A stretch of 24,770 nt of DNA, from NCBI GenBank assembly GCA_964654465.1, contig CAZZIO010000036.1, forward strand, positions 1 to 24,770. Direction: 5' to 3'. This DNA comes from an uncultured Dictyoglomota bacterium (GTDB lineage Bacteria > Dictyoglomota > Dictyoglomia > Dictyoglomales > Dictyoglomaceae). The notes under the pieces are model-generated. The model was given only the letters and a program-made list of their open reading frames with translations. It was not told where the DNA came from and searched no databases. A program made the translations under genes and the position numbers. Below are positions 4,616 to 24,226 of this stretch, in pieces; within the stretch, counting starts at the first letter, position 1, and every line of letters begins with the position of its first letter.

Positions 4616-4628
4616 AAAATCATCCTCC

Positions 4629-7448
4629 TCACTCAAATTTCAACCAATTTATTTTTACTTCCTTTTCTCCTCTTATATACATATCTTGTTTACCTAAAAT
4701 ATTCTCATCTAAAACAAAAACAATTTCTTCCCATTCATTAAAAGTATCTATTACATCAAAAGAAAATTCTTTATCAATTTTGCTAAAATATAAAAACATT
4801 TTGGAATTTTTGGTAGTAGATATTTCCATCCTTATCCTTTGAGAGGGTCTATAAAAATTTAAATCCTGAAATAGTATCCATGAATCTTCTTTAGGAAAGA
4901 TTACATAAGTTTCTTCCCAATTTCTTTTTGTATTGAAAACTAAATTGTATCCATCATCAAAATTAAAAGCTTTTATTCTCTCAAAAGGATCTCTATCTTC
5001 AATTTCCTCTCCCCCCACATAAATTCTTCCTCTTAATCTTATATCCTCTGATGAAGCACCAACTAAAATCTCGTATTCTCCTTTCTCAACTAAATACTTC
5101 TCTTTTCTCACATCCCATATAAAAAGCTCCGAAACAGGTACTGTAAATTCAACCTTAACCTTTTCTCCCTTTGGAATAAATATCCTTTGAAAACCTTTTA
5201 ACTGAAGCTTTGGCCTTTTTATCTTTGAATTAATAGCTCTAACATAAACTTGTGGTACCTCATCAGAATCCATATCTCCGACATTTCTAATCTCAAAACT
5301 AAGCCTTATTTCATCTTTTATTCCATAATTTTTAGAATTTAAAAATAAATTACTATATTCAAATTCAGTATAAGAAAGTCCATGTCCAAAAGGAAAGAGG
5401 GGTTCTTTATCAAAATACATATAGGTTCTCTTTTCCCTTATTACATCATAATCTATCATGGGAGGTATATCATTTACAGATTTATACCATGTAATACATA
5501 ATCTTCCTGCCGGAGAATAATTTCCAATTAATACATCTGCTATAGCATTTCCCATTTCTTGTCCCCCATGGGAAGACCATAAAATGGCTGGTATATGCTC
5601 CTTTGCCCAGTTAATAGCGTAAGGATAACTACTAATTATTAAAAGCACTGTGTTAGGATTTACTTTATAAATCTCTCTAACAAGTTTCTCTTGGTGATCT
5701 GGTAAAACAATGTCTACTCTATCTTCTCCTTCTCTTCCATTTACTAAAGGATTATTTCCTACACATAATACTACTAAATCGGATTCTTTTGCTATATTGC
5801 AAGATTTTTCTATACCATCTTCTAATTTCTCAATTATAAATTTTTCCTCTGGAAGGTTTTCAAAACTATCTTTGAATTTAATCAAATTTCCATTCTCTTC
5901 ATCTATATAAAGATATTTTCCATGCCAAGTCTTAATATAGAAGGTACCATCTCCTAAGGAATCTATTTGGAAAAGTTCCTTTACAAACCACCCAAATACT
6001 TCTTCTGATGCAGACAGGATAGAAAAATTAGAGTCATCACAAGTTAAGTATTTGTTATTTGCTAAAGATTGCAGGCTTTTATTGCCCCATCCCCAATCTA
6101 TAAATCTAAATTTTTCCCTTGGGCCAATTTCTTCACTTATAGCCCATAAAGGACTGATCTCTGATTCTATAACTCTCAAATATTTATTATTTTTTACCGA
6201 TTTTATTGCAATAATATCATAGGAATCATAATATTTTATTTCCTTATTATATAATCTGTTTACTATTCCTTGGAGAATAGAAACTTTATATGGATAAGTA
6301 CCACTATACCAATCATTATAGTTTTTATTGGCTAAAGGACCTATGACCGCAATATTATTTATTTTTTCTTTATTTATAGGAAGGAATTTATTCTGATTCT
6401 TTAAAAGTACAATAGATTTAAGAGCAGATTGATATGCAAGCTGAGAATGCTCCTTATCACATATTTTGTTAGGAGAAACATAAAATTTTTTACTTATTTC
6501 TTCATCAAATTCACCAAGTCTAAATCTTACACGAAGGGTATTAAAAACAGCCCTATCAATATCCTCTTCAGTTATTAATCCCCTTTCAAGAGCTTTCCAT
6601 GCTGATTCTATAACAAGATCAGGATCATCAGTAAAGGCATCAATTCCAGCTTTCAGAGCATAAGCCATTGTCTCGTAATGATTATCAAAAGTTTTATGTG
6701 AGGTAACTGTTTGACTAAAATCTGCAGCATCAGTTACTACATATCCACTTAATCCAAATTTCTCTTTTAAAACCTTCTTTACTATTGGATTTACTATACA
6801 AGGTACACCATTTACAGCATTGTAAGCAGTCATTATTCCCATAGCTTTTCCCTTTTCTATAACCCTCCTAAAAACATCTAAGTAATATTCATACATATTT
6901 CTGGGATCAATATTGGCGGAAAATTTATCTCTATCCTTCTCATTATTATTAGCAAAGAAGTGCTTAGGAGTCATTGCGGTTTTAAGATATACTTCATCAT
7001 CTCCTTGCATACCTTGTATATATGCACTTGCCATTTCTCCAGCAAGATAAGGATCTTCACCATAACCTTCTTCCATCCTACCCCATCTTGGATCTCTTTC
7101 CATATCTACAGTAGGAGCCCAAAGCATAAGTCCCCCAATCTTTCCCCTCATATAGTAGTAAGCTCGAGCCTCTAATGAGACCACTTCTCCTATTTTTTTC
7201 ATAAGATCTCTATCAAAGGAAGATACAAGACCAATAGGTTGAGGAAACACAGTGGCTTTTCCCAACCAAGCTACACCATGAGCGGATTCCCCACCTATAT
7301 GAAACTCTCTTATATCTAATCTGGGTATTGGTGCTTGTCTGGTAGGAAGCAACTTAATCTTTTCTTCAAGGGTAAGAAGAGAGAGAAGATTTTTTACTCT
7401 TTCATCAATAGGGAATAAAGGGTTCTTAAAAATATATTCATCTGCCAT
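4629..7448 (-). CDS. GH3 beta-glucosidase/beta-xylosidase, multi-domain, no signal peptide
   Basis: ESAHG, RDPRWGRMEEGYGEDP, KHF, MTAYN and VVTDAAD (nucleophile region). C-terminal Fn3-like QLKGFQRI...GEYEILVGASS. Carries an internal insertion and an extra C-terminal domain. SD AAGGAGG. Confidence 0.93.
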   Translation of the reverse strand: MADEYIFKNPLFPIDERVKNLLSLLTLEEKIKLLPTRQAPIPRLDIREFHIGGESAHGVAWLGKATVFPQPIGLVSSFDRDLMKKIGEVVSLEARAYYYMRGKIGGLMLWAPTVDMERDPRWGRMEEGYGEDPYLAGEMASAYIQGMQGDDEVYLKTAMTPKHFFANNNEKDRDKFSANIDPRNMYEYYLDVFRRVIEKGKAMGIMTAYNAVNGVPCIVNPIVKKVLKEKFGLSGYVVTDAADFSQTVTSHKTFDNHYETMAYALKAGIDAFTDDPDLVIESAWKALERGLITEEDIDRAVFNTLRVRFRLGEFDEEISKKFYVSPNKICDKEHSQLAYQSALKSIVLLKNQNKFLPINKEKINNIAVIGPLANKNYNDWYSGTYPYKVSILQGIVNRLYNKEIKYYDSYDIIAIKSVKNNKYLRVIESEISPLWAISEEIGPREKFRFIDWGWGNKSLQSLANNKYLTCDDSNFSILSASEEVFGWFVKELFQIDSLGDGTFYIKTWHGKYLYIDEENGNLIKFKDSFENLPEEKFIIEKLEDGIEKSCNIAKESDLVVLCVGNNPLVNGREGEDRVDIVLPDHQEKLVREIYKVNPNTVLLIISSYPYAINWAKEHIPAILWSSHGGQEMGNAIADVLIGNYSPAGRLCITWYKSVNDIPPMIDYDVIREKRTYMYFDKEPLFPFGHGLSYTEFEYSNLFLNSKNYGIKDEIRLSFEIRNVGDMDSDEVPQVYVRAINSKIKRPKLQLKGFQRIFIPKGEKVKVEFTVPVSELFIWDVRKEKYLVEKGEYEILVGASSEDIRLRGRIYVGGEEIEDRDPFERIKAFNFDDGYNLVFNTKRNWEETYVIFPKEDSWILFQDLNFYRPSQRIRMEISTTKNSKMFLYFSKIDKEFSFDVIDTFNEWEEIVFVLDENILGKQDMYIRGEKEVKINWLKFE

Positions 7449-7563
7449 AAAATATTTAAAGCCTCCTTCACAAAATAATTTTAATTTAGGATTATATAAT
7501 GATACATGAAAATAATAAATTGCAAGATTTTACTAATTTGAGTTAAATTCATAGTATAAATAG

Positions 7564-7980
7564 CTATTCACCAATTATTTTTACAAGTACTCTTTTTCTC
7601 CTCATTCCATCAAACTCACCATAAAAAACCTGCTCCCATGGACCTAAATCAAGCTTACCATCAGTAATTGCTATTACCACTTCTCTTCCCATTATGGTAC
7701 GCTTTAAATGTGCATCAGCATTATTTTCACCCACATTATGGTAATATTGATTATATGGTTTTTCAGGAGCAAGCTTTTCTAACCATATTTCAAAATCTTT
7801 TAAAAGACCTGGCTCATCATCATTGATAAAAACACTTGCAGTAATATGCATAGCATTACAAAGAAGAAGCCCCTCTTTAATTCCACTCTCATCTACACAT
7901 TTTTGCAAGGTATCTGTGATATTCACAAACCCCCTTCTTGTTGGAAGATTAAACCACAATTCTTTTCTATAGGTCTTCAT
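7564..7980 (-). CDS. yjbQ: YjbQ/UPF0047 family protein (secondary thiamine-phosphate synthase-like)
   Basis: [20 protein letters not shown] and [16 protein letters not shown] motifs. Confidence 0.93.
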
Positions 7981-8009
7981 ACCTTTGATCCCTCCTTAAA
8001 TTATAAAAA

Positions 8010-8018
8010 TGTTATAAT
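8010..8018 (+). promoter_or_regulatory. Candidate extended -10 promoter for the MNT-HEPN operon
   Basis: TGtTATAAT about 33 nt upstream of the ATG at 8051, inside an imperfect palindrome (8001-8036). Confidence 0.45.
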
Positions 8019-8050
8019 TATATTACAAATTTATAAAGGAGTATTAGGCA

Positions 8051-8434
8051 ATGAGTAAAACCTTTAGAGATTTATCCCTTGAAGAAAAAAGAAAATATAT
8101 AGAAGTCCGAAAAAGACTTGAGGAAGAAGAAAAAAAGCTATTAGACATAAGATATGAAAAGGCATTAAATTTAGCAAAAGAAATCTCTGAAATTCTTTAT
8201 AAAAAATATAAAGCTAAGAAGGTATTATTAGTGGGATCTCTTAAAGATAAAGAATTATTTACAAAATGGTCTGATATAGATTTAGCTGTATCAGGAATAT
8301 CTGATAAAGATTATTTTAAAGCAATATCTGAAGTTTTATCTTTAAGCACAGATTTTAAAATAGATATTATTGATTTGGATAGCTGTGAAGAAGAAATTAG
8401 ACTTAGTCTTGAGAGAGAAGGTATATTACTATGA
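8051..8434 (+). CDS. Minimal nucleotidyltransferase (MNT), putative antitoxin
   Basis: GSLKDKELFTKWSDIDLAV matches GS-x-DxD of Pol-beta-type MNTs, with a third acidic residue in KIDII. ATGA overlap with the downstream HEPN gene. Confidence 0.88.
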   Translation: MSKTFRDLSLEEKRKYIEVRKRLEEEEKKLLDIRYEKALNLAKEISEILYKKYKAKKVLLVGSLKDKELFTKWSDIDLAVSGISDKDYFKAISEVLSLSTDFKIDIIDLDSCEEEIRLSLEREGILL

Positions 8435-8898
8435 AAAAAATGTATTTATTAATTTCAAGTAGGATAAAAAACGAAATTATAGAGATAGAAGAAACAATAA
8501 AAAGAGCACAAAAAGCATGGGAATTAATTAAAGAAGAAGATTCGCTATATATAGATAGTGTAGCACTAAACCTTCATAACTTTTATAGTGGTTTAGAGAG
8601 AATTTTTAGTTTAATCGCTAAAGAGATAGATGGTAAAATTATAGAAACACCAGATTGGCACAAAGAACTTTTACTCCAAATGTCTATAGAAATTCCTTAT
8701 GTAAGACCTGCAATTATTTCTAAAGAGCTCAAAGAAAAACTTGAAAACTACAGAGCTTTTAGACATGTTGTTAGAAATATATACGCCTATAAGCTAAAAC
8801 CTGAAAAGATAAGAGATCTTATAACAAATCTTCCTATAATATGGGAAGAAACTAAAAAGTATCTTTTAGACTTTTGCAACTTTTTAGAGATGCAATGA
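8431..8898 (+). CDS. HEPN-domain (HepT-like) putative ribonuclease toxin
   Basis: LHNFYSGLERIF, WHKELL and FRHVVRNIY motifs of the MNT-associated HEPN family. Coupled to the MNT gene. Confidence 0.85.
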   Translation: MKKMYLLISSRIKNEIIEIEETIKRAQKAWELIKEEDSLYIDSVALNLHNFYSGLERIFSLIAKEIDGKIIETPDWHKELLLQMSIEIPYVRPAIISKELKEKLENYRAFRHVVRNIYAYKLKPEKIRDLITNLPIIWEETKKYLLDFCNFLEMQ

Positions 8899-10174: not shown

Positions 10175-10366
10175 ATGAACATCGGGAAGACTGACGCCAT
10201 CATTAGGGTGATCGTTGGTATGATTTTACCTCATCTTACAAAATGGGGAATTGTTTCAGGGACTGCTTGGGGTATAATCTTACATATAATAGGGTTTATT
10301 TTAGTATTTACTGCGGCCGTAAGATATTGTCCTCTCTATAAACTTATAAATAAATCTACAGCTTAA
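10175..10366 (+). CDS. DUF2892 (YgaP-like) small membrane protein
   Basis: NIGKTDAIIR start, two TM helices and a C-terminal YCPLY motif. SD GGGGTG. Confidence 0.85.
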   Translation: MNIGKTDAIIRVIVGMILPHLTKWGIVSGTAWGIILHIIGFILVFTAAVRYCPLYKLINKSTA

Positions 10367-10368
10367 AA

Positions 10369-10398
10369 AAAAGAGGGGGATTTTCTCCCCCCTCTTTT
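10369..10398. terminator. Bidirectional intrinsic terminator closing the pectin operon and the DUF2892 gene
   Basis: AAAAGAGGGGG...CCCCCTCTTTT inverted repeat between convergent stop codons. Confidence 0.85.
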
Positions 10399-11488
10399 AA
10401 AATCTATTTATAACTATCTTTCCTGCCTTTTTCTCTTTTAAAAGTTTTAATCCTTCATTTATTTCTTCTAAGGATATCCTATGAGTTATCATTTCTCTGA
10501 AAATATCCTCATGTTTTTCTATGAATGTTACAGCCTTTCTAAAGTGTCTTGCATCACTTACCCATACCCCTTGAACATTCAAATTCTTTGAAGAGATATC
10601 ATAAAAATCTATGGGTATTTTATCTTGAGGTGTAGCAATTCCAACTATTAAATATGTACCACCTTTTCTAAGTAATTTTATCCCTTCAGTTATAGCACTA
10701 TTAAAACCAGTAGCCTCAATTACCACATCTGCTCCTTTTCCGTATGTTACATCATATACTTTTTTTATTCTTTCTTCCTCAGTAAACTCGTCTCTTTTTA
10801 TTACAAGATCAATACCTATCTTTTGAGCTACCTCTATTCTTTTTAGGCTTCCCGTTATAAGCACTACATTTTTAGCTCCCTGATACTTAGCTAAAGCAGC
10901 AGAAAAAAGCCCCAAAGGTCCTCCCCCTTGAACCACCACAGTACTACCTAACAGGTTATCCTTCAAATAGTCAAAGGCATGAACTGCTGTAGCTCCTGAA
11001 CAACCAGCTATCACCATTGTTTCTAAATCTACTTTTAAAGAAAGTTTTATGACTTCAGTTTTTTCTTCTAATATTATGTACTCACTAAATGCTCCAAGAA
11101 GATAGGGGTATTCCGAAAATGATCTATTAATTCCATAAACTTTTCGGTTTTCACATAAAAATGGCTCATTTAATACTTTACAGTAGAAACATTCTCCACA
11201 CACAATCCCTCTATTCCAAATAATTAGATCTCCTTTCCTTAATGATACCCCATTAAGATCCTTCTTTTCTCCATTAATTTCTACTACTTCTCCTACCCCT
11301 TCATGACCTAAAATTATAGGCAAAGGCACTCTGGGATCCTTTCCCTCTATGATGTGCAGATCTGATCCACAAACACCTGATGCGACTAATTTTACTAAAA
11401 GTCCACCAGAAGGAATTTCAGGTATCTCTACACTTTTCAAAACTAAGGGTTTATTAAATTCTTCCAGAACTGCAACCTTAGCCTTCAT
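10397..11488 (-). CDS. Zn-dependent medium-chain dehydrogenase/reductase (TM0436-like MDR)
   Basis: GVCGSD, GHEG, structural-Zn CGECFYC...C, third ligand in GCSGAT, Rossmann GGGPLG. Confidence 0.9.
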   Translation of the reverse strand: MKAKVAVLEEFNKPLVLKSVEIPEIPSGGLLVKLVASGVCGSDLHIIEGKDPRVPLPIILGHEGVGEVVEINGEKKDLNGVSLRKGDLIIWNRGIVCGECFYCKVLNEPFLCENRKVYGINRSFSEYPYLLGAFSEYIILEEKTEVIKLSLKVDLETMVIAGCSGATAVHAFDYLKDNLLGSTVVVQGGGPLGLFSAALAKYQGAKNVVLITGSLKRIEVAQKIGIDLVIKRDEFTEEERIKKVYDVTYGKGADVVIEATGFNSAITEGIKLLRKGGTYLIVGIATPQDKIPIDFYDISSKNLNVQGVWVSDARHFRKAVTFIEKHEDIFREMITHRISLEEINEGLKLLKEKKAGKIVINRF

Positions 11489-13265
11489 AGTTTTTAGGTC
11501 TTATAGGTTCTTTTATTTCATATTTTAACTCTCCATCTCTTTTATAAAATATTATGTACTTATTCCATTCAGACTTTTTAGGAAGGAAATCCATAACAGG
11601 GGGATTGAACTTTTTAAATCTTAAATGAGGACCTCTACTTTCATCCCTTATTAAAATAGCATTTAAAATTAATTCCGCAATATCTAACATATTTAAAGTC
11701 TCATAGTAATAGAAGATCCCATTCTCATCCAAGGAAACACCCTCTTTTTTAATTTCCTTTATCAAAGATATACCTTTTTTAATATCTTCTTCCATTCTAA
11801 CTAAAAATCCATATTCAGATACAATATCTCTGATCTTTTCCCTAACTAACTTTGAGGGTAAACCCCTTTGAGAAATTCTTTCTTCCACCTCATCCAAATT
11901 AAAATCTACAAAATCTACTTTAGAAGCGTATTGAACTGCATTTTCTCCCGCTATTTTACCAAATACTTGAGTATCAAGGAGTGAATTTCCCCCAGGACGA
12001 TTGGCACCATGTTGCCCACCTGCTACTTCTCCAGCAGCATAAAGCCCTTCTAAACTTGCTCTTGCATCTTCCTTTATTTTTACCCCTCCTTGAAAATGTT
12101 GAAGAGCATTTTGTATGGGAAGCAATTCCCTGGAAAGATCTATATTATAATTTTTCAGCCATTCAATAATTGAAGGATTTATTAATTTAAGCCTTTCATA
12201 GGGAGTAGTATCTTTAAAAATCTCTTTTCCAATCTTTTCACTCCATTTCAATATTTCTTCTGGAATACTTTCATAAGATAAGTAAGATGGATTTTCCATA
12301 AAATTCATATATACTTTGTGGCCTTGTTTTATATGATGATAGACAGCCAAATCAATTACCTTTGTAGGTGATTCGTAAGATACTGGCCAACGAGCTCCCT
12401 TTTTAAACTCAAGAACACAAAGATTAGCTTTATCCTCTTCTGAAAGATAATCTAACAAAAATTCTCTACCATTTTCATCCACTATCTTAGGCAAAGCTCT
12501 AAACATACTTCCTGATTCAGCAAAGAGAATCTGAGGATGGCATATACCAATCTGCATAAACTCCATATTAACCATTTGAGCCCCAGCTCTTAAAGATATT
12601 GCATATCCATCACCTGTCATTTCTGAAGTAAATACATTTTGACGATATAAAGATCCTGCTCCACCTGTAGCAATCACAAAAGCCTTTCCCTTAATAATTA
12701 TTTTTTCTTGCGTACTCATATCTATAGCTTTTGCTCCAACAACCCTATTATCTTTGACTATAAGATCATAAACCATTACATTTTCATAAGTCTCAATATT
12801 TGTTTCTCTTATCTTCTTAGCTAACGCTTTAGCTATCTCAATAGAAGTGTTTGGTCCTACATAACACGCCCTGGGATATTCGGAACCATCGGTAAGAAAT
12901 TGATCAATCTTTCCATCGTGGGTTCTGACAAAAGGTACCCCTATAGATATAAGGTAGTTAATAGCTTCTTCACTATTTTTAGCCAATATTTCAGCCAGAT
13001 TGTAATCCGATACTTCTCCTCCGATCTTATATATATCCATAGCATGATAAATATAATTATTTTGTATAGGTAATGTATAGGATAATGTAGCATGAAAAGC
13101 CATTCTATCTGAAAAGGCATTAGCAGTTACGCCACCTTTGCCAATCGGTTTCTTAGATAATAAGATAATTTTCAAATTTGGATTTTTTTCATAAGCAGTT
13201 AAAGCAGATCTAAGACCTGCCCCTCCAGCACCTATAACTATCACATCACCCTTAATTACTTTCAT
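11478..13265 (-). CDS. FAD-dependent oxidoreductase, fumarate reductase/succinate dehydrogenase/NadB flavoprotein family, substrate unknown
   Basis: VIVIGAGGAG, ATGGAG, TGDG, NMEF, HFQGG, GLYAAGE, HGANRPGGNSL and ESRGPH motifs. Lacks the SHT covalent-FAD His motif. Confidence 0.88.
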   Translation of the reverse strand: MKVIKGDVIVIGAGGAGLRSALTAYEKNPNLKIILLSKKPIGKGGVTANAFSDRMAFHATLSYTLPIQNNYIYHAMDIYKIGGEVSDYNLAEILAKNSEEAINYLISIGVPFVRTHDGKIDQFLTDGSEYPRACYVGPNTSIEIAKALAKKIRETNIETYENVMVYDLIVKDNRVVGAKAIDMSTQEKIIIKGKAFVIATGGAGSLYRQNVFTSEMTGDGYAISLRAGAQMVNMEFMQIGICHPQILFAESGSMFRALPKIVDENGREFLLDYLSEEDKANLCVLEFKKGARWPVSYESPTKVIDLAVYHHIKQGHKVYMNFMENPSYLSYESIPEEILKWSEKIGKEIFKDTTPYERLKLINPSIIEWLKNYNIDLSRELLPIQNALQHFQGGVKIKEDARASLEGLYAAGEVAGGQHGANRPGGNSLLDTQVFGKIAGENAVQYASKVDFVDFNLDEVEERISQRGLPSKLVREKIRDIVSEYGFLVRMEEDIKKGISLIKEIKKEGVSLDENGIFYYYETLNMLDIAELILNAILIRDESRGPHLRFKKFNPPVMDFLPKKSEWNKYIIFYKRDGELKYEIKEPIRPKNYEG

Positions 13266-14421
13266 TGTCTTTCCTCCTTGGTATCATGCGTATTGCTTTT
13301 ACAGGGCAAAGCTTTACACATAAACCACAACCATCACATAAATCAGTAATAATATATTTTCCATTTTTCTCGATTGGAGCATCATAAATACATACCTTCT
13401 TACATATCCCACAAGAGGTGCAAAGATTTTCATCTATACATGCTTCATAAAGATGTCTTCTATCAATATCATTATTCCCAAGAATAACCTTCCCTGAAAC
13501 TTTCCCCCTAAACTCTGAAGGACTTGTATAATTCTTTTTCTCCATGAATCTCTTTAATCCTTCTAATATTTTTGAAATGATTTCATAACCCATAAGATAG
13601 ACCACACTGCATATTTGAACAACATCAGCACCAGTTAGTATATACTTAGCCACATCATCTCCACTCCCCACTCCTCCAGAGCCTGCAATTGATAATTTCA
13701 AATGAGGACGAGAGGTTGCAATCCATCTCAGAACATAATTAAATGCCCAAGGACCACCATGTCCAGCATAACCACCATGTAAAATAGGCTTTTCTGTATC
13801 AAGATCTATATCAAGACCCGTTAACCTATTAAACATAACAACTCCGTTAACCCCAATATCTTCCAAAATTTTAGCTATTGCCAGAGGAGATGAAAGTTGC
13901 ATAGGCAGTTTTACAATTATGGGAATATTTACATTTTCTCTTACCATTTTCGCCACTCTCAAGATAGTATCATCCACATCTTGTCCTCTAAAGGATATGG
14001 ATGCATGAGGACAAGAGACATTAAGTTCAAGAGCAGGAGCACCTACTTCTTCCGCCATCTTTGAATATTTAAACCAACCCTCATCGGTTATACAATTTAT
14101 ACTGGGGATTACTGGTATAGATAAGGTATTTAAGGCCTTACTAATCTCCTTAAAATATTCTTCAGGACCAAAAGGGCTTGCCTGCTCAAAGGAATAAAAT
14201 GTCTGAGATCTAAGAGGTCCCATGGTCCTATTTATTATCTCAAATCGAGGAGTAGGTGATATCCTACATATTTCTTCCTCAAAAAGAGATTTTACCACCA
14301 CCGCCCCTGCTCCATTTTCTTCACATTTTTTCATATTTTTAACATTTTCTGTAAGTCCTGAAGACGCAATAATAATAGGATTTTTAAGCTTCAATCCTAC
14401 ATAATTGCAAGATAAGTCCAT
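13252..14421 (-). CDS. Dihydroorotate/dihydropyrimidine dehydrogenase-like FMN protein with C-terminal 2x[4Fe-4S] ferredoxin domain
   Basis: LKNPIIIASS, VVKSLFEE, ELNVSCPH (catalytic Cys loop), IIVKL, MFNRL and GSGGV. Cluster motifs CTSCGICKKVC and CDGCGLCVKLCP. Confidence 0.88.
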   Translation of the reverse strand: MDLSCNYVGLKLKNPIIIASSGLTENVKNMKKCEENGAGAVVVKSLFEEEICRISPTPRFEIINRTMGPLRSQTFYSFEQASPFGPEEYFKEISKALNTLSIPVIPSINCITDEGWFKYSKMAEEVGAPALELNVSCPHASISFRGQDVDDTILRVAKMVRENVNIPIIVKLPMQLSSPLAIAKILEDIGVNGVVMFNRLTGLDIDLDTEKPILHGGYAGHGGPWAFNYVLRWIATSRPHLKLSIAGSGGVGSGDDVAKYILTGADVVQICSVVYLMGYEIISKILEGLKRFMEKKNYTSPSEFRGKVSGKVILGNNDIDRRHLYEACIDENLCTSCGICKKVCIYDAPIEKNGKYIITDLCDGCGLCVKLCPVKAIRMIPRRKDNESN

Positions 14422-14435
14422 ACAAATTTCCTCCT

Positions 14436-15197
14436 TTATTTCTTACCCCTTAAAGCATTAGATATTTTCTCGCAAGTTTTCAAAAGTTCAGAGAGATACA
14501 TATCTTTATTTTCCTCTACCGATAAGTAGTATCCAGATATAGAGACTGCAGCTACAACCCTCTGAGAAAAATCAAAGATAGGAGCACCAATACATTTTAT
14601 TCCTCTTTCATTTTCCTCATTATCAAAAGCATATCCTTGATTCCTAACCTTCTGCAATTCTTCTCTTAATTTATTAGGGTCTGTAATAGTTTTATCTGTT
14701 CTTGGAATCAAAGGTACCTTCTTAAGATAATCCTCTATATAATCGTCGGAGCTAAAAGCAAGAAGAACTTTACCAAAACTTGTTGAATAAAGAGGCATTC
14801 TCATACCTATTCTTGACATCATAGGAAGAGTCCCTGGACCTTCTACTTTGTCAATATATACTCCTTCATATCCATCTTTTATAGTTAAATGTACTGTCTG
14901 CTTTGTGTTCTCCATTAACTCAATAAGATAGGGACGAGCAATATCTCTTAAATCAAGACTTTGAAGAATATAGGAAGAAAGTTCAAGAATTCTAAATCCT
15001 GGCTTATATAATCCTGCAGGTGTCTTTCTAACATATCCCTTATCAATTAAAGTTGACAGATAACGATGTACAGTAGATATGTGAAGCCCAATCTCCTCCG
15101 ATATCTCTTTTAAAGAAACCTCTCTTCCAGCCAAAATTATATACTCAAGAATATCTAAAGTTTGCCCTGCAGATCCAATACCTATTTTAGATTTCAT
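14436..15197 (-). CDS. IclR-family transcriptional regulator (KdgR-like by context)
   Basis: HTH LKEISEEIGLHISTVHRYL and effector-domain motifs GMRMPLYSTSFGK, GYAFDNEE and CIGAPIF. Start placed at ATG 15197, an ATGA overlap with the kdgK stop. Confidence 0.92.
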   Translation of the reverse strand: MKSKIGIGSAGQTLDILEYIILAGREVSLKEISEEIGLHISTVHRYLSTLIDKGYVRKTPAGLYKPGFRILELSSYILQSLDLRDIARPYLIELMENTKQTVHLTIKDGYEGVYIDKVEGPGTLPMMSRIGMRMPLYSTSFGKVLLAFSSDDYIEDYLKKVPLIPRTDKTITDPNKLREELQKVRNQGYAFDNEENERGIKCIGAPIFDFSQRVVAAVSISGYYLSVEENKDMYLSELLKTCEKISNALRGKK

Positions 15198-16156
15198 CTT
15201 TCTACACTCCATTCATTATTAAAAGATTCTAAAAACCCTTCTAAAGTCTCTTCATCCAATGCTAAAAAGTCACCAAATACACTCATCTTTAGTGATGCTA
15301 ATATATTTCCATATTTGGCACATTCTTCAAGAGTTTTACCCTTTAAATACCCATAGAGAAAACCAGCAACAAATGCATCTCCCGCCCCAATTCTATCTAC
15401 CATATCTGTAGATAAAGCCTTTTGAAGAAAATATTTATCCCCATAAAGTACAGAACATCCTTCTTCCCCTCTTGTAAGGACATAAATTTTTTCCTTTCCA
15501 AACCTCTTCTGAAGATTATATAAAATTTTATCATCTTCTACATTATTTCCAAAGAGTAACTTGTAATCTTCTTTCTTAATAAAAAGTATATCTACAAAGG
15601 GAATCACTATATCTAAGAATCTACGACATTCTTCTACACCCCATAACTTTTGTCTAAAATTTACATCAAAGGATAATTTTTGACTCTCTTTTTTGGATGT
15701 ACAGATCTTTATCACATTATTTTTACATATCTCACTTAAGCTGGGAGTTATTCCAGTAAGATGAATAAGTTTGGCTTTTTTTAGATAATCAAGATCACTA
15801 TCAGAAAGAGGAGTTAAGGAAAAAGAAGAATTTTTTCTATCATAAAGCACTTTTATGCCTTTTGTTCTATGATGAAGCTCCACAAAATACATTCCCATTC
15901 TTCCTTCTGATATAAGCCTCACCCTATTTGTTCCAACACCATATTTTCTAAGCTCACTTAAAGCTCTATAACCCAAAAAATTGTTAGGAAAAAAAGATAT
16001 AAACTCAGTTTTTAATCCTAACAAAGAAAGGGAGATAAGAACATTAGCCTCTGTACCACCTATTTCCACGTTCCAAGTATTACTACTTAGAAAAGTACGA
16101 TATCTCTCAGGGGTGATTCTTACCATCACCTCACCATAAGAAATAATATCCACCAT
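15194..16156 (-). CDS. kdgK: PfkB-family sugar kinase, probable 2-keto-3-deoxygluconate kinase
   Basis: YGEVM, GGTEANV, YDR, LTGITP, FDVNFRQKLW and DRIGAGDAF are KdgK-type motifs. Pectin context. Confidence 0.8.
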   Translation of the reverse strand: MVDIISYGEVMVRITPERYRTFLSSNTWNVEIGGTEANVLISLSLLGLKTEFISFFPNNFLGYRALSELRKYGVGTNRVRLISEGRMGMYFVELHHRTKGIKVLYDRKNSSFSLTPLSDSDLDYLKKAKLIHLTGITPSLSEICKNNVIKICTSKKESQKLSFDVNFRQKLWGVEECRRFLDIVIPFVDILFIKKEDYKLLFGNNVEDDKILYNLQKRFGKEKIYVLTRGEEGCSVLYGDKYFLQKALSTDMVDRIGAGDAFVAGFLYGYLKGKTLEECAKYGNILASLKMSVFGDFLALDEETLEGFLESFNNEWSVER

Positions 16157-16179: not shown

Positions 16180-17325
16180 TTATTCCCTAAACTTTACTAC
16201 ATACATCTCACTATTAGCAGTACTAAAAGACTCAGATCTACCTACGATCACTACATAATCAAGATCATATATAGCTCCCCAACCCTCATCCAAATCCGCT
16301 CCACCAAAAAACTTCTCCCAAATAAGATCCCCATCCTCATTAATCTTCACCACATATACATCACTATTTCCTGCCCCTTTAGAATTAGATCCGCCTACTA
16401 TCAAATATCCCTTTTCATCTTTAGAAGGCATAATAAGGAAGCCCGTCTCATAACCTTTACCACCATAAGTTTTCTCCCATATTTTGTTTCCATCTTTGTC
16501 TATCTTTATTACATATAGATCAGGATTATCAGAAAAAGAATTGGAGTTTCCAACAATCATATAACCATCCCTGCAAGAAGTAATACTGTATGCATAATCA
16601 AATCCCTTACCCCCAAAAACCTTATCCCAAATCAAGTTTCCTTTTTTATCCACTTTTATTACATATATATCCTGAGATTCTGAAAAAGAATTAGATATCC
16701 CTACAGCCACATAACCATCTTTATCAGACACTACCCCATATCCATATTCGCTCATTTTATCTCCAAATGCTTTTTCCCAAAGCTTATTACCCTTACCATC
16801 GATTTTTAATAGATAAAGATCATATTGCCCTTTTCCAAAAGAATTAGTCCTTCCAACTATGACAAAATTACCATCAGAATCCTTTGTCACTCTCCAACCT
16901 TCTTCAAAACCTTTACCGCCAAAAGTTTTTTGCCATAAGAGATCTCCATTTTCATCTATCTTTAACACATATACATCACTATTTCCTGCTCCCAAAGATC
17001 TGGTACCACCAACAACAAGATATCCATCCTCTGCCTCATTTATAGAATAGGCATAATCATCCTTAGACCCGCCATAAAATTTCTCCCAAACTTTTTCCCC
17101 TTTTCTGTCTATCTTAAGAATATAAACATCTTTTCCTCCACTACCAAAAGATGAAGTCTCTCCTACAAGAATATATCCATCCTTACTTTTAACTATTCCA
17201 TAACCTTTTTCACTTTTTTCACCACCATATACACTCTGCCCAAAATCCAACATTTCTTTTTCTTGAGAAAAAGAAATAACAAACAGAGAAAAGAAAGTTA
17301 AAAAGAAAATCAAAAACCTTTTCAT
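16180..17325 (-). CDS. Secreted seven-repeat beta-propeller protein, function unknown
   Basis: Sec-type signal peptide (MKRFLIFF...SFS/QE). Seven ~50-aa repeats of the form WEK.YGG...D.AYSI....DGY.VVG...S.G.G..DVYVLKID..G. Confidence 0.8.
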   Translation of the reverse strand: MKRFLIFFLTFFSLFVISFSQEKEMLDFGQSVYGGEKSEKGYGIVKSKDGYILVGETSSFGSGGKDVYILKIDRKGEKVWEKFYGGSKDDYAYSINEAEDGYLVVGGTRSLGAGNSDVYVLKIDENGDLLWQKTFGGKGFEEGWRVTKDSDGNFVIVGRTNSFGKGQYDLYLLKIDGKGNKLWEKAFGDKMSEYGYGVVSDKDGYVAVGISNSFSESQDIYVIKVDKKGNLIWDKVFGGKGFDYAYSITSCRDGYMIVGNSNSFSDNPDLYVIKIDKDGNKIWEKTYGGKGYETGFLIMPSKDEKGYLIVGGSNSKGAGNSDVYVVKINEDGDLIWEKFFGGADLDEGWGAIYDLDYVVIVGRSESFSTANSEMYVVKFRE

Positions 17326-17337
17326 AAACCCTCTCCT

Positions 17338-18342
17338 TTAAGGTAAAAGTACCTTCTTTCCTGCTCCTGCTCCTTTTTCCAATAGATATGGAATCACGTC
17401 AGCTTCATCTAATTCATATTCATAAGGAATATTAAAGTCCTCCAATTCTTGAGTTATATTATTTTCTCCACATTCCCAGTAAAAATTATTAGACTCTTTT
17501 ATATACCCATCCTGTGGACTTTCAAACTGAGTAGTCATTGGAATTTTTACATTCTCAAAATAGTTATTTTCTACAATAACTTTTGCCCCCATTCTGGATG
17601 CAATACCATAAAGAAGTATATTTTTATAATAGTTATTAAAGATATGGACAGCCCCAAATCTTACAGAAGGATTTCTTGAATTAGTATTTCTAAAGATATT
17701 ATGGTGATAAGTTACCCTTGCATCTACATCTACAGTAGAGCTATCACTACTACCTACTTGAGTACATTTCCAACTATTCTCAAAAATATTCCATGAAACA
17801 GTGACTCCTTGAGATCCTTTGATAATATCTAATAATGCATCAACTCTATCCTTTTCTTTTTCTCTTTCTGGTACCACAATCATATCACTGGTTAATGTGC
17901 AGTGATCTATCCAAACGTTTTTAGAGTTTTCAACAGTTATGGCATCATTTTTAGGATTTTCAAAAGTATTTTTAATGGTTAAGTTTCTGATAATTACATT
18001 ACTTACTCCTTTTAAATATAAGCCCCAGCCAACAATACCTGCATCTTCTGTTATACCAATAATAGTCTTATTAGATTCAATAGTAATCTGACCCTGTTCT
18101 TTACTAGTATCTATAATTCCTTTTACAAGAATAATATATGGATCTTTATCTTGTGCATACTTTTTAAAATCATTAATATTATCAACAGTTACAACTTTTC
18201 CACCTTGCCCACCTGTTGTCCCTGCCCCAAAACCTACTGGCTTATCATCAAGAGTAAGTATAGTTTCATCTATATTTTCTTGAGAGAAACCAAAACTCAT
18301 TAATAAAGCAATAATTAGTAATAGAATAAAAAGCTTCTTCAT
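17338..18342 (-). CDS. Secreted pectate lyase, polysaccharide lyase family 1
   Basis: Signal peptide, GFGAGTTGG.GG, SNKTIIG, NVIIRNL, DAI, VWIDH, VTYHHN and RNPSVR motifs. Confidence 0.95.
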   Translation of the reverse strand: MKKLFILLLIIALLMSFGFSQENIDETILTLDDKPVGFGAGTTGGQGGKVVTVDNINDFKKYAQDKDPYIILVKGIIDTSKEQGQITIESNKTIIGITEDAGIVGWGLYLKGVSNVIIRNLTIKNTFENPKNDAITVENSKNVWIDHCTLTSDMIVVPEREKEKDRVDALLDIIKGSQGVTVSWNIFENSWKCTQVGSSDSSTVDVDARVTYHHNIFRNTNSRNPSVRFGAVHIFNNYYKNILLYGIASRMGAKVIVENNYFENVKIPMTTQFESPQDGYIKESNNFYWECGENNITQELEDFNIPYEYELDEADVIPYLLEKGAGAGKKVLLP

Positions 18343-18357
18343 GACTCTATACCTCCT

Positions 18358-19731
18358 TTATTTTTCTCCAAAATATTTTAGAAATCTTTTTGTACCATCA
18401 ATCATTCTATCAAAAAGTTCTTTGGCTTTAGAATGATTTAATCTTGACTCTACTAATGGATCATTATAAAAAGCCCTAAAAGCAAGCTTTAGATCTTTTT
18501 CCAAAACTGCTTGAAGGATCATTTCTTGATTCATAATATGCCTCAAAACCCATGAATTCACATCATTAGGTAATTTCCCTGCATATATAGGTAGTATATT
18601 ATCTCTTGTTATATATACATTAGTTTCAACTATAACATCTCTTGGTACTCCATCCATCTGCCCAACATTAGGATAATTAACATTAGTTATAAAATCGGAA
18701 AGCCCAAGAAGAGCTTTCATTATTTGGACTCCTACCTCTCCAGAAGGTTTAATAGGAAATTCCATCTCTCCTTTAGCAAGTTTTTGACTCATCTCATAAA
18801 GTTCTTTTGCTTGCTGTCTTCTAAAGGATACAGGAGTTAAAGAAAACTTCCATTCTTTTACCTTTTCAGGATTTTCCAAATACCAGTAAGCAGGGAAAAA
18901 CTCTGCTAAATGTCTGTCACCAGCAGCTGCAATTATTCCATATCTTTTATAAAGATCAAATTTTACCCTATTAGCAGAGGCAAAATAATCCCAAGTCCAT
19001 CTACCTTTCTCTTCTTCATAACCTTCATAATAATATTTCTCGGCAAATTCACCATAAATGGGTAATAGATCCATATTTCTGTAGGAAATCTTATCTACCC
19101 ATGTAAAATGATTAATTCCTAAAACATTTTGTTTTATCTCAGAAAGTGAGACATCAATATTCTCCTTTTCCTTTAACATGAGAGACAAAATCTTAGGGAT
19201 TTTAAAAACTTCATGACAACAACCTATTGCTTTTATCTTAGGAAATACTGTATATAGAGTCCTCACACAAAGAGCCATAGGGTTTGTGTAATTAATAACC
19301 CAGGAAGTGGGAGAATATTTTCTAATAGCCTCAGCAAATTCCATATATATAGGAATAGTTCTTAAAGCTCTTATAACTCCTCCAGGTCCAGGTGTATCTC
19401 CTACTGATTGATAAATACCATACTCCTCTGGAAGATGCACATCTATTTCCATCTCATCCAATGTACCTGGAAGAATGGAAATAACTATAAAATCTGCACC
19501 TTCTAATGCTTCCCCTATCTCCTTTACCGCTTTATATCTCCATTTACTTTTAGCAGACTTCTGTTCACTTATTCTATTTCCAATAATCTCATTAGTTTTT
19601 GCAGACTCAAAATTTATATCATAAAGTCTCACTTCTCCAGAAAAACTCTCTTCAAGAGCAAGATCTGCCATAAACTTCCAAGCCCAACCCTTAGATCCTC
19701 CTCCTATGTATGCTATCTTTACATCATTCAT
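18358..19731 (-). CDS. lplD: GH4 NAD+/Mn2+-dependent alpha-galacturonidase
   Basis: KIAYIGGGS, QSVGDT.GPGG, NYTNP, GINHF and the CHEV motif associated with GH4 alpha-galacturonidases. Confidence 0.88.
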   Translation of the reverse strand: MNDVKIAYIGGGSKGWAWKFMADLALEESFSGEVRLYDINFESAKTNEIIGNRISEQKSAKSKWRYKAVKEIGEALEGADFIVISILPGTLDEMEIDVHLPEEYGIYQSVGDTPGPGGVIRALRTIPIYMEFAEAIRKYSPTSWVINYTNPMALCVRTLYTVFPKIKAIGCCHEVFKIPKILSLMLKEKENIDVSLSEIKQNVLGINHFTWVDKISYRNMDLLPIYGEFAEKYYYEGYEEEKGRWTWDYFASANRVKFDLYKRYGIIAAAGDRHLAEFFPAYWYLENPEKVKEWKFSLTPVSFRRQQAKELYEMSQKLAKGEMEFPIKPSGEVGVQIMKALLGLSDFITNVNYPNVGQMDGVPRDVIVETNVYITRDNILPIYAGKLPNDVNSWVLRHIMNQEMILQAVLEKDLKLAFRAFYNDPLVESRLNHSKAKELFDRMIDGTKRFLKYFGEK

Positions 19732-19752: not shown

Positions 19753-20592
19753 CTATCCTCTAAGCCCTGACGTGGTTACACCTTGTACAATATATTTCTG
19801 GAAGAATACAAATAATATAAGCACAGGAAGTAAAGATAACGTAGACATAGCAAAAACTGCTCCCCAATTAGTTACTGCAGAAGGATCTGAAAAAGCTCTT
19901 AATGCTACTGAGACTGGATATTTTTCAGGACTATTTAAATATACCAAAGGTCCCATAAAATCATTCCACGCCCAATAGAAAGAGAATATGGTAGCAGTAG
20001 TAATTACTGGTTTTAAGTTGGGAAGAATAATATGATAAAAAATACCAAATCTTCCTGCCCCATCAATAAAGGCAGACTCATCAAGTTCCTTAGGTATTCC
20101 TCTAATAAATTGCATGATCATAAATATAAAGAAAGGACCCCCAAGAAAAGCCGGTACTATAAGAGGTTTAAATGTATTTATCCATCCAAGCTTAGAAAAT
20201 AAAATATACCTGGGTACAATCTGAACCTGCATAGGAAGCATCAATGTAAGAATTACAGTAGTAAATATGATTTTTCTTCCTGCAAAAGGAATTCTGGCAA
20301 GTCCATATGCTACAAGAGTTGAAGATATAACTGTTCCAATAGTATTAAGACCTGCTAATATAAAAGAGTTTTTAAAGAATGTAGCAAAAGTTATACCACC
20401 AAATCCCCCCCATCCTTCTATATAGTTATTTATTGTAGGTTCCTTAGGTATAAGATTTAAAACATCACTAAAAATCTCCCACGGCTGTTTAAAAGAACTA
20501 CTTAACATCCACAAGGCTGGATATACCATAATGAAGGCAAGAAAAGTAACAAAGGTATAATAAATTATATTATTCAAAGTTTTCCTTTTCAC
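19753..20592 (-). CDS. Carbohydrate ABC transporter permease (MalG-like)
   Basis: Six TM segments, EAA loop IPKELDESAFIDGA, WNDF and a QKYIVQG C-terminus. GTG start. Confidence 0.95.
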   Translation of the reverse strand: MKRKTLNNIIYYTFVTFLAFIMVYPALWMLSSSFKQPWEIFSDVLNLIPKEPTINNYIEGWGGFGGITFATFFKNSFILAGLNTIGTVISSTLVAYGLARIPFAGRKIIFTTVILTLMLPMQVQIVPRYILFSKLGWINTFKPLIVPAFLGGPFFIFMIMQFIRGIPKELDESAFIDGAGRFGIFYHIILPNLKPVITTATIFSFYWAWNDFMGPLVYLNSPEKYPVSVALRAFSDPSAVTNWGAVFAMSTLSLLPVLILFVFFQKYIVQGVTTSGLRG

Positions 20593-22843: not shown

Positions 22844-22955
22844 TTTTAATCCCCCCAAACTAAGTTTTTTAATAAAAGAAAATCAAAGCAAAGCTAAAAA
22901 TTTTTTTATTTCTTTATACACCTCCTTTGTATATTATGAAATTCATTTGTATTAT

Positions 22956-22984
22956 ATTATAACCACATCATTAAAATTTTTCAA
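22956..22984 (-). promoter_or_regulatory. Sigma70-type promoter of the pectin operon
   Basis: Minus-strand TTGAAA (22984-22979), 17-nt spacer, TATAAT (22961-22956). Confidence 0.7.
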
Positions 22985-24184: not shown

Positions 24185-24226
24185 TTTGTTACCTCCTTTT
24201 AACCAATAAAACGACAAGGTTTCAAC

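Follow-up and report, generated by a model that had tools for sequence, protein, structure and literature searches.

Several described enzyme systems come close to an overlapping trio of redox genes that stands at the end of an apparent pectin operon on contig CAZZIO010000036.1 (C36) of an uncultured Dictyoglomota bacterium; this whole contig, 24,770 bases at ~32% G+C, is the window analysed here. Dihydropyrimidine dehydrogenase (DPD), the PreT-PreA pair and class 1B dihydroorotate dehydrogenase (DHOD; PyrD-PyrK) share with the first protein of the trio a flavin mononucleotide (FMN) TIM barrel and an 'ELNxSCPH' loop, and PreA and domain V of DPD also share its C-terminal domain with two [4Fe-4S] clusters. 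The flavoprotein of succinate dehydrogenase and fumarate reductase (SDH/FRD), L-aspartate oxidase and archaeal TfrA have in common with the second protein the FAD_binding_2 plus Succ_DH_flav_C fold for flavin adenine dinucleotide (FAD), with its flavin-domain His and Arg, while the third protein, a Zn-dependent medium-chain dehydrogenase/reductase (MDR), matches over its whole length PDB entry 1vj0, which we take to be AldH (TM0436) of the Thermotoga maritima UxaR pectin regulon. Flavoproteins that join a FAD_binding_2 domain to a domain resembling old yellow enzyme (OYE) are known from the NADH-dependent fumarate, acrylate and cinnamate reductases. On the metabolic side, the operon has the same start (products of polysaccharide lyase family 1, PL1), the same end (KdgK in the operon and the aldolase Eda on contig C65) and the same KdgR-like type of regulator as the Ogl/GH105-KduI-KduD-KdgK-KdgA route to 2-keto-3-deoxygluconate (KDG).

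We propose that the trio forms the redox core of a widespread, uncharacterised module for a carboxylated (uronate-type) sugar, whose product would enter the end-pathway of KDG kinase and 2-keto-3-deoxy-6-phosphogluconate (KDPG) aldolase. To this reading we give an even chance, and any specific chemistry for the three proteins is unlikely. In this genome, the best reading is that a kdgK-iclR-DHOD-like-FAD-MDR block is placed behind an oligogalacturonide system, the link to pectin being confined to the Dictyoglomaceae. What we rate as new is the putative catabolic sugar-acid cluster together with a new flavo-Fe-S enzyme architecture. In open reading frame (ORF) coordinates, the trio consists of the following genes:

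13252-14421, minus strand: PreA/DHOD-like FMN TIM barrel carrying a 2x[4Fe-4S] ferredoxin domain at its C-terminus (DHO_dh 2.2e-29, plus Fer4 families)
11478-13265, minus strand: SdhA/FrdA/NadB-like FAD flavoprotein of an unnamed subfamily (FAD_binding_2 9.4e-49, plus Succ_DH_flav_C)
10397-11488, minus strand: Zn-dependent MDR of the TM0436/1vj0 type (ADH_N plus ADH_zinc_N)

All three proteins come from known superfamilies, yet their scores lie below the membership thresholds of every named family tested. Against NCBIfam, the FAD protein reaches 291.6 for its best model, TfrA (cut-off 718), 239.4 for the SdhA/FrdA subfamily (567) and 209.7 for NadB (452.75), and searches of the ESM Atlas returned nothing beyond clusters of unnamed 'FAD-binding protein'. 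A more distant paralogue of the FAD protein is encoded on C65 of the same genome. In HMMER alignments to 7d6v_A and to E. coli FrdA (3p4p_A), the window protein has a gap at 'hpt' and a Gly in place of the covalent-FAD His of 'RSHT', and the family consensus reads 'NMEFIQIG..S'. Its 'QHFQGG' and 'GANRPGGNS' motifs are kept, their counterparts in E. coli FrdA being 'HYTMGG' and 'GANRLGSNSL'; among 14 sequences of the family, H390 is conserved in at least 90% and R423 is invariant. The flavin-domain His and Arg of FrdA presumably bind the substrate carboxylate, and their retention in the absence of the covalent-FAD His and of 'HPT' would fit a monocarboxylate substrate that reacts at the carbons beside its carboxylate. 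Unlike the SDH/FRD flavoprotein, the window protein has neither of these two motifs, and it also lacks an SdhB-type partner.

The PreA/DHOD-like protein scores 280.9 against 303 for a 'DHOD-like protein' subfamily (NF005741), 182.5 against 335 for PreA (NF006183) and 161.8 against 269 for PyrD (NF005574). Its 'ELNVSCPH' loop aligns with 'ELNLSCPH' of pig DPD, in the same alignment 'FNR' stands opposite 'TNT' and the Asn of 'FLNIE' stands opposite a Ser, so that two of three Asn positions are kept. In the DPD literature, the 'SCPH' Cys is the catalytic Cys of the pig enzyme and the three Asn bind the pyrimidine. Retention of this Cys and of two of the three Asn suggests that the DHOD-like protein turns over a substrate itself, and with the eight Cys of the C-terminal domain invariant across 11 sequences it has the look of a functional substrate site joined to an electron conduit. 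By analogy with DPD, PreT-PreA and PyrD-PyrK, electrons would be expected to pass through the Fe-S clusters to a second flavoprotein. Unlike those systems, however, the operon, to which this search was confined, holds no PreT/GltD-like or PyrK electron-transfer partner, and the neighbour of the DHOD-like gene is instead the SdhA-like FAD gene; the protein further departs from DPD in the Ser at one pyrimidine-binding position and in its scores under both the PreA and the PyrD thresholds. A more distant DHOD-type paralogue lies on contig C40.

The MDR also stays below all NCBIfam equivalog cut-offs (best TIGR03366, 193.6 against 328; L-threonine 3-dehydrogenase 182.6 against 380, L-idonate 5-dehydrogenase 115.1 against 469, and the scyllo-inosose 3-dehydrogenase IolM 148 against 450), while its match to 1vj0_A is full length (E 5.1e-133, 446 bits, query 1-360 against chain 16-376). 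The lead to a TM0436-type MDR given in the initial annotation is thereby borne out, on the assumption that 1vj0 is indeed TM0436; that TM0436 is the gene named aldH is our presumption too, made from the gene order in the text on the T. maritima regulon. The KduI family was not detected in the T. maritima control genome. According to that study, the pectin regulon operon of UxaR is aldH-pelB-gnd-uxaRED-gntEK, with aldH-pelB more than 17-fold up on pectin (PMC3750489).

The module recurs well beyond the Dictyoglomota. With a profile of 14 FAD-protein relatives, we found 211 encoding stretches in contigs from one genome per species and fetched the best 80 of these 211 (loci labelled L); neighbouring ORFs were labelled by BLAST to the window proteins and the rest clustered, each cluster being named from a Pfam scan of one representative. 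Only 31 of the 80 loci extend 6 kb or more in both directions from the FAD gene, so that counts over the whole set are lower bounds. Represented among the 80 are Dictyoglomota, Pseudothermotoga, Deltaproteobacteria/Thermodesulfobacteriota, Bacillota (Moorella, Sporomusa, Thermoanaerobacterium, Caldicoprobacter), Aerophobetes, Latescibacterota, Chloroflexota, Verrucomicrobiota, Planctomycetota and further groups. The neighbours counted within 6 kb of the FAD gene are:

MDR: 46/80 loci (22/31 full loci, adjacent in 16)
FMN partner: 35/80, OYE-type 20 and DHOD-type 16 (14/31, adjacent in 12)
organic-acid transporter, that is TctCBA, a tripartite ATP-independent periplasmic (TRAP) system or a Peripla_BP_6 ATP-binding cassette (ABC) system: 30/80 (18/31)
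kdgK-like gene: 23/80 (8/31)
eda: 12/80 (7/31)
Gfo/Idh/MocA (GFO) gene: 17/80 (10/31)
cupin: 10/80 (7/31)
IclR regulator: 7/80 (4/31)
LacI regulator: 7/80 (4/31)
PL1: 2/80
glycoside hydrolase family 4 (GH4) at 50% coverage or more: 1/80

Either kdgK or eda is present at 24 of the 80 loci. A typical deltaproteobacterial cluster reads M24like-ABM-TctCBA-GFO-cupin-MDR-FAD-OYE-kdgK-eda-LarAlike-MDR2-2HADH, the last being a D-2-hydroxyacid dehydrogenase, and that of Pseudothermotoga TctCBA-GFO-DHODlike-FAD-MDR-IclR, while Thermoanaerobacterium saccharolyticum has DHODlike-FAD-MDR-GFO-TRAP (L054); some clusters also contain genes for LarA-like proteins, D-2-hydroxyacid dehydrogenases and IlvD/Edd. 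In two deltaproteobacterial clusters the row includes uxaC: the last gene of L034 encodes a glucuronate isomerase (NF002794, 510 bits against a cut-off of 387), and a copy 77% identical to it occupies the same position in L051. Our own genome carries on contig C72 (L093, C72:8000-27000) a row of TctC-TctB-TctA, an M24/creatinase-like protein, GFO and DctP, which is the 'upper' part of the module of other phyla, here split from the FAD, FMN and MDR genes; its GFO protein shares 61% identity with the one in L005, and its M24-like protein 48% with the deltaproteobacterial counterpart. The GFO genes at 17 of the 80 loci recall the 3-keto-glycoside pathway, in which a Gfo/Idh/MocA 3-dehydrogenase works with a sugar-isomerase-like lyase/hydratase, and 8tdi, a 'glucuronide-3-dehydrogenase', is the solved structure that best matches the GFO-type gene of L055 (E 2.7e-15, Rossmann part only). 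This pathway, including a glucuronide 3-dehydrogenase, and the C3-oxidation logic that it shares with GH4 enzymes are set out in the accessible part of a preprint (bioRxiv 10.1101/2024.03.25.586180); unlike it, the window operon has no GFO gene (which is on C72 instead), and the described pathway uses no flavoproteins. As separate observations on these neighbourhoods, two Dictyoglomota loci have a URO-D-like gene (from a family with a methyltransferase-type fold) after FAD-MDR (L007:12882-13976), L027 has a gene for the corrinoid activase RACo upstream of its MDR-FAD pair (5767-7683), and a GH116-family glycosidase gene directly precedes MDR-FAD in two Verrucomicrobiota loci (L044:5644-8697 and L058:5464-8646). 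The URO-D-like and RACo genes could point to methoxylated substrates, or they could be neighbours with no functional tie to the module.

The genes for the FAD protein and its FMN/Fe-S partner are adjacent in 12 of the 31 full loci and overlap by 14 nt in the window, which fits equimolar synthesis, and in L042 (9986-13054) FAD_binding_2 and Oxidored_FMN form a single polypeptide. A C-terminal CxxCxxC-x11-12-C motif is present in 19/19 OYE-type partners and in the L042 fusion, and we take it to be the [4Fe-4S] signature of the branch of trimethylamine dehydrogenase, FadH and enoate reductase; in NCBIfam, the partner in L034 is nearest to the FadH/OYE, bilirubin reductase and BaiCD models. The stand-alone OYE partners and the PreA-like protein of the window end after their Fe-S ligands, with no NAD(P)H/FAD domain (Pyr_redox_2). 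That NAD(P)H-binding domain is found on the partner only in L016, whose Oxidored_FMN + Fer4_20 + Pyr_redox_2 protein (6208-8889) has the enoate-reductase architecture, and in L020 (1439-4015) and L033 (4334-6943), where DHO_dh + Fer4_20 + Pyr_redox_2 + Fer4 make up a permuted full DPD-like protein. Two unrelated FMN/Fe-S barrels, of DHOD and of OYE type and both without the NAD(P)H domain, therefore fill the same place beside the SdhA-like protein, and this interchange is our strongest argument, a genetic one only, that the FAD and FMN/Fe-S proteins may exchange electrons. The layout of an OYE-type FMN barrel with CxxCxxC...C beside or fused to a FAD_binding_2 protein is shared with the two-flavin 2-enoate reductases (clostridial enoate reductase, FadH, BaiCD). 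Unlike these, the stand-alone partners have no NAD(P)H/FAD domain, the barrel in the window is of DHOD and not of OYE type, and the context is one of sugar acids rather than of aromatic or short-chain enoates. Literature searches, which did not extend to subscription journals, found no pairing of an SdhA-like protein with a domain-truncated barrel of DPD or enoate-reductase type, and searches on Dictyoglomus pectin, TM0436/1VJ0, ene-reductases for unsaturated uronates and novel hexuronate flavoproteins returned nothing on the module.

In the window, the trio follows a row of genes that reads as a pectin operon, since its PL1 lyase is secreted, its GH4 enzyme is LplD-like, and the best models of its regulator and kinase are KdgR and KDG/KDGal kinase. 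The nearest protein relatives of the window ORFs carry the names Dictyoglomaceae or Dictyoglomus. The minus-strand row runs from a solute-binding protein (SBP) through two permeases, GH4, PL1, a DUF5122 propeller, PfkB and IclR to the DHO_dh+Fer4, FAD and Zn-MDR genes; upstream of the trio it comprises:

21569-22858, minus strand: extracellular SBP of an ABC importer (SBP_bac_1), with a stem-loop at 21556-21528 after the gene
19753-21498, minus strand: two ABC permeases of CUT1 type (BPD_transp_1 twice)
18358-19731, minus strand: GH4 glycosidase resembling the alpha-galacturonidase LplD (GH4 N and C domains; PDB 3fef, B. subtilis LplD, E 6.5e-154)
17338-18342, minus strand: PL1 pectate lyase with signal peptide (Pectate_lyase_4 1.4e-42; N-terminus MKKLFILLLIIALLMSFGFSQ)
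16180-17325, minus strand: secreted DUF5122/delta-60 beta-propeller (Pfam and NCBIfam; hydrophobic signal-like N-terminus)
15194-16156, minus strand: PfkB kinase, KDG-kinase-like (PfkB 4.7e-45; best NCBIfam KDG/KDGal kinase, 228.6 against a cut-off of 440)
14436-15212, minus strand: IclR-family regulator, KdgR-like (IclR_C 7.7e-58; best NCBIfam KdgR, 179.5 against a cut-off of 275)

In this order the genes read as extracellular lyase action, ABC import of oligogalacturonides, intracellular cleavage by GH4 and, last, a putative KDG kinase. Two signals are placed at the ends of the row:

22956-22984, minus strand: best promoter-like site, upstream of the SBP gene, TTGAAA-17-TATAAT with 11/12 matches (a consensus match only)
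10374-10392, minus strand: intrinsic terminator closing the operon, a G+C hairpin GGGGGGAGAAAATCCCCCT and then a T-run, immediately 3' of the MDR stop

The operon has just one further intergenic hairpin, 3' of the SBP gene, and this lacks a clean T-run. The DHOD-like and FAD genes overlap at 13252-13265 and the FAD and MDR genes by 11 nt (11478-11488); 14 nt (14422-14435) separate the iclR stop from the DHOD-like start, kdgK and iclR overlap by 19 nt, and the remaining gaps back to the first permease measure 12-23 nt. The overlaps, the 14-nt gap and the single terminator had been given in the initial annotation and were reproduced exactly from the ORF coordinates and a hairpin search. In line with its impression that the trio is co-transcribed with the transporter, GH4 and PL1 genes, the trio looks co-transcribed with a genuine oligogalacturonide operon, one that has a secreted PL1 lyase and an LplD-like GH4 enzyme. 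By eye, no common IclR operator was evident upstream of the SBP gene of the window, the KduI-like gene of C65 or tctC of C72 and their relatives, no formal motif search having been made.

Beside these elements we note some further features. A small hydrophobic plus-strand ORF (10175-10365) lies between the operon terminator and a threonine-aldolase gene and, read by eye, is kept in locus L004, where positions 6650-7060 hold the FAD gene, ~100 nt, the same terminator hairpin and then the same small ORF and threonine-aldolase gene. The propeller has a paralogue, ~38% identical and with a signal-like N-terminus, upstream of the SBP gene (23003-24217, minus strand), and a third on contig C25. A second ABC system paralogous to that of the window (SBP 50%, permeases 65% identical) is found in the same genome at L094 (C49:24000-41235), with its own GH4, a RhaA-like isomerase, an FGGY kinase, a class II aldolase and short-chain dehydrogenases/reductases (SDRs), and looks like a locus for the utilisation of rhamnose or rhamnogalacturonide.

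None of KduI, KduD, PL22, GH88/105, UxaA/B/C or Eda is found among the window ORFs scanned (a 147-aa ORF at 1806-2249 and a few shadow ORFs lay outside the scan), as had been claimed for the window, and tblastn with the genome's own KduI-like and Eda proteins gave matches on contig C65 alone. Family searches covered the whole assembly, of 1.91 Mb and with a completeness score of 99.97%, and in it returned no match for UxaC, UxaA-type GD_AH, UxuA, Mannitol_dh_C (mannitol-type dehydrogenase), GH88/105 or PL22 (Ogl), and no KduD equivalog, the best TIGR01832 score being 210.6 against 338.85 and all nine SDR matches lying under the cut-off. KDPG aldolase (eda) is present on C65, and a single GH28 gene on C58. 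The gap argued from the window alone thus extends to the genome for UxaC, UxaA, UxuA, Mannitol_dh_C, GH88/105, PL22 and KduD, and it fails at one point, a gene of the KduI/IolB family next to eda. Because the only solved structure that its product matches at E <=1e-5 is 2qjv, labelled 'IolB-like', this gene cannot be called a true KduI; unlike organisms with the Ogl/GH105-KduI-KduD route, the bacterium has no Ogl, GH88/105 or KduD equivalog and a KduI/IolB gene with no closer structural match. In the available text of the D. turgidum genome paper, no galacturonate route is named beyond a guess that UDP-sugar epimerases might act.

The distribution of the same families in other module genomes is uneven. 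Among 35 module genomes, chosen non-randomly from the 80 loci for taxon span and longer contigs, UxaC was found in 14, KduI/IolB in 28, UxuA in 15, GD_AH in 22 and, with our own genome added, Mannitol_dh_C in 18 of 36; absences in this set are soft because assembly completeness is unreported. The eight deltaproteobacterial members have UxaC in 3/8, UxuA in 0/8, Mannitol_dh_C in 0/8 and GD_AH in 2/8, so in genomes with an in-cluster uxaC the known post-isomerase steps are not found. Within the deltaproteobacterial order that contains genome G013, 17 of 55 genomes have an orthologue of the FAD protein at E <=1e-100; Eda is present in 15 of these 17 against 22 of the 38 others (Fisher p 0.03, only indicative as the genomes are related), and in 12/17 it lies, by contig coordinates, within a few kb of the FAD gene. 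The KduI/IolB family occurs in 11/17 against 20/38 (p 0.56, same related genomes), and a specific positive correlation of the module with KduI is accordingly rejected.

Taken together, these data suggest an outline of the reaction sequence. In a genome that has no UxaCBA, UxuAB, KduD, Ogl or GH88/105, the module would carry galacturonate or its 4,5-unsaturated form through to KDG. The FAD and FMN/Fe-S proteins could form one enzyme whose two flavins are connected through [4Fe-4S] clusters; it would have two substrate sites, or one fed by ferredoxin. Such a complex would resemble DPD or the enoate reductase of clostridia, except that an SdhA-like protein would stand in for the NAD(P)H/FAD half. 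The FAD site may act at the carbon beside the carboxylate, by 2-enoate reduction or by 2-hydroxyacid or alpha,beta-dehydrogenation, and a 4,5-unsaturated uronate, being a cyclic 2-enoate, represents a candidate substrate class for it; the FMN site may reduce a C=C bond conjugated to a carbonyl, and a 3-keto- or 5-keto-4,5-unsaturated uronate would resemble orotate. The Zn-MDR would then carry out the last NAD(P)H-dependent reduction of a carbonyl (keto or aldehyde), a KduD-like step that yields KDG, and KdgK from the operon and Eda from C65 would complete the pathway. Candidate schemes include direct ene-reduction of unsaturated galacturonate, a route via a 3-keto intermediate, redox-assisted 4,5-dehydration of a saturated uronate to 5-keto-4-deoxyuronate (DKI), and demethylation of 4-O-methylglucuronate; 4,5-unsaturated uronate or DKI is a plausible candidate substrate. 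The most ambitious version, which we consider doubtful though possible, combines a new two-site flavo-Fe-S enzyme, made of the SdhA-like protein and an interchangeable DHOD- or OYE-type barrel, with a dehydratase- and isomerase-independent conversion of hexuronate (saturated or 4,5-unsaturated) to KDG, in which oxidation beside the carboxylate would be coupled to ene-reduction; with the TM0436-type MDR this would constitute an unknown hexuronate pathway of anaerobes in many phyla and would explain the use of pectin by Dictyoglomus.

A number of observations weigh against a uronate module of this kind, and we gather them here. The initial annotation had proposed that the trio is an alternative route from unsaturated oligogalacturonide or DKI to KDG; the operon context, the genome-wide gaps and the linkage to kdgK and eda speak for it, whereas the KduI/IolB gene, the lack of an anti-correlation, the pectin genes at only 2/80 loci and the loss of the MDR from L004 speak against it. 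The KduI/IolB-family gene (PF04962, 281.6 bits) lies directly upstream of eda on C65, so that the genome may have some of a KduI-type route, which the trio would not have to replace; L006 and L007 also have a KduI-like gene, 72% identical to that of C65, a few kb upstream of the module. The anti-correlation with KduI that had been predicted is not seen, neither in the 28 of 35 module genomes that carry the family nor in the 11/17 against 20/38 of the one order profiled. Co-occurrence with catabolic genes held for kdgK and eda, which are linked repeatedly in other phyla, and not for PL1; moreover, none of the 80 loci has a GH28 homologue, and apart from the window only L004 and L008 have pectin genes with the module, which elsewhere stands next to organic-acid transporters of the Tct, TRAP or ABC kind. 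Nor is the trio a fixed unit, as the MDR has gone from the operon in L004, the closest relative (FAD protein 92% identical; PL1-propeller-kdgK-iclR-DHODlike-FAD), and the DHOD-like gene is missing from L006 and L007 (TctCBA-GFO-FAD-MDR-UROD-like); the stable core is the FAD protein plus, usually, an MDR and an FMN/Fe-S partner. In two Thermoanaerobacterium genomes (G022 and G023), UxaC, UxuA, GD_AH and a mannitol-type dehydrogenase are all present besides the module, which would make it dispensable there for plain glucuronate or galacturonate. Finally, the canonical chemistry of KduI/KduD or UxaCBA is flavin-free; a flavin route therefore needs a reason, and we have none to offer.

The Thermoanaerobacterium genomes are the main reason to keep alive the strongest alternative, that the module degrades some other carboxylated substrate, imported as a monomer through Tct, TRAP or ABC systems, and shares with pectin use just the KDG end-steps and a KdgR-like regulator. 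4-O-Methylglucuronate from glucuronoxylan, an aldonate or keto-aldonate (such as L-galactonate, L-gulonate or 5-ketogluconate) or a carboxylated cyclitol would be candidates, and the place of the block behind the pectin genes in Dictyoglomaceae would reflect regulatory convenience rather than a common substrate. We hold this to be possible, at clearly less than an even chance. It would account for the acid transporters found at 30/80 FAD loci as opposed to PL1 at 2/80, for the separate TctCBA-M24like-GFO-DctP row that our own genome keeps on C72, and for L005, a Dictyoglomaceae locus with the module, TctCBA and kdgK and without pectin genes (MDR-TctCBA-GFO-kdgK-iclR-DHODlike-FAD). Module genomes with full UxaC/UxuA/UxaA sets point the same way, as do the LarA-like, D-2-hydroxyacid dehydrogenase and IlvD/Edd genes of some clusters and the fact that GFO, Zn-MDR, IolB-like and PfkB proteins are families of inositol catabolism too (NCBIfam IolG, IolM and IolC; 2qjv). 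A different acid is harder to reconcile with the window operon itself, tightly packed with overlapping genes and one terminator, with the uxaC genes inside two clusters (L034 and L051), with a genome that has no other known route from galacturonate to KDG, and with the report that the T. maritima relative of the MDR, by a presumed identification, is pectin-induced (PMC3750489).

As a further alternative, the trio might detoxify heat-formed breakdown products of uronates (enones of furan, reductone or cyclopentenone type) rather than serve as a main carbon route, as had also been considered at the outset. Reduction of activated alkenes and carbonyls is within the range of OYE-type and DHOD-type flavoproteins and of MDRs, and the host is a low-G+C relative of the thermophilic Dictyoglomus. 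The idea sits poorly, however, with the presence of the module in metagenome-assembled genomes of Syntrophaceae, Sporomusa, Latescibacterota, Verrucomicrobiota and Planctomycetota, lineages that we take from record titles only to be non-thermophilic, and its genes are linked to uptake systems, kdgK and eda, as is characteristic of a pathway for a nutrient; we regard detoxification as very unlikely. It is scarcely credible that the genes keep the functions of their family names (DHOD/DPD, fumarate reductase or L-aspartate oxidase, and threonine or alcohol dehydrogenase) and owe their place next to the pectin genes to chance, since, despite the Pfam and NCBIfam similarity to those families, all equivalog models score well under cut-off, the covalent-FAD His and 'HPT' are missing and one of three pyrimidine-binding Asn is Ser, more distant paralogues are present on C40 (DHOD type) and C65 (FAD type), and the linkage to MDR, kdgK, eda and transporters is conserved across phyla.

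Apart from the operon and its module, the window contains a separate glycoside-utilisation unit downstream of the locus, in which GH31 and GH3 genes overlap (2288-7448, minus strand; GH31 start 4636, GH3 end 4629), and at 8051-8898 on the plus strand overlapping genes for a nucleotidyltransferase (Polbeta/NTP_transf_2, 127 aa) and a HepT-like protein (155 aa) in the layout of an MNT-HepT toxin-antitoxin pair.

Galacturonate and glucuronate are major plant-derived carbon sources, and the known bacterial routes for them (isomerase, oxidative and KduI/KduD) leave this genome unaccounted for. A conserved module of unnamed flavoproteins, which many anaerobic phyla carry next to genes for sugar-acid transport, KDG kinase and KDPG aldolase, is a concrete candidate for the missing pathway, and it may represent a new way to wire two flavin sites via Fe-S clusters. 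Its interest beyond routine annotation lies in this conservation across phyla and in the real gap that it would fill in the pectin metabolism of Dictyoglomus. If a uronate module is the true reading, a role would be assigned to the structural-genomics protein 1vj0, and predictions of carbohydrate use for metagenome-assembled genomes would be sharpened.

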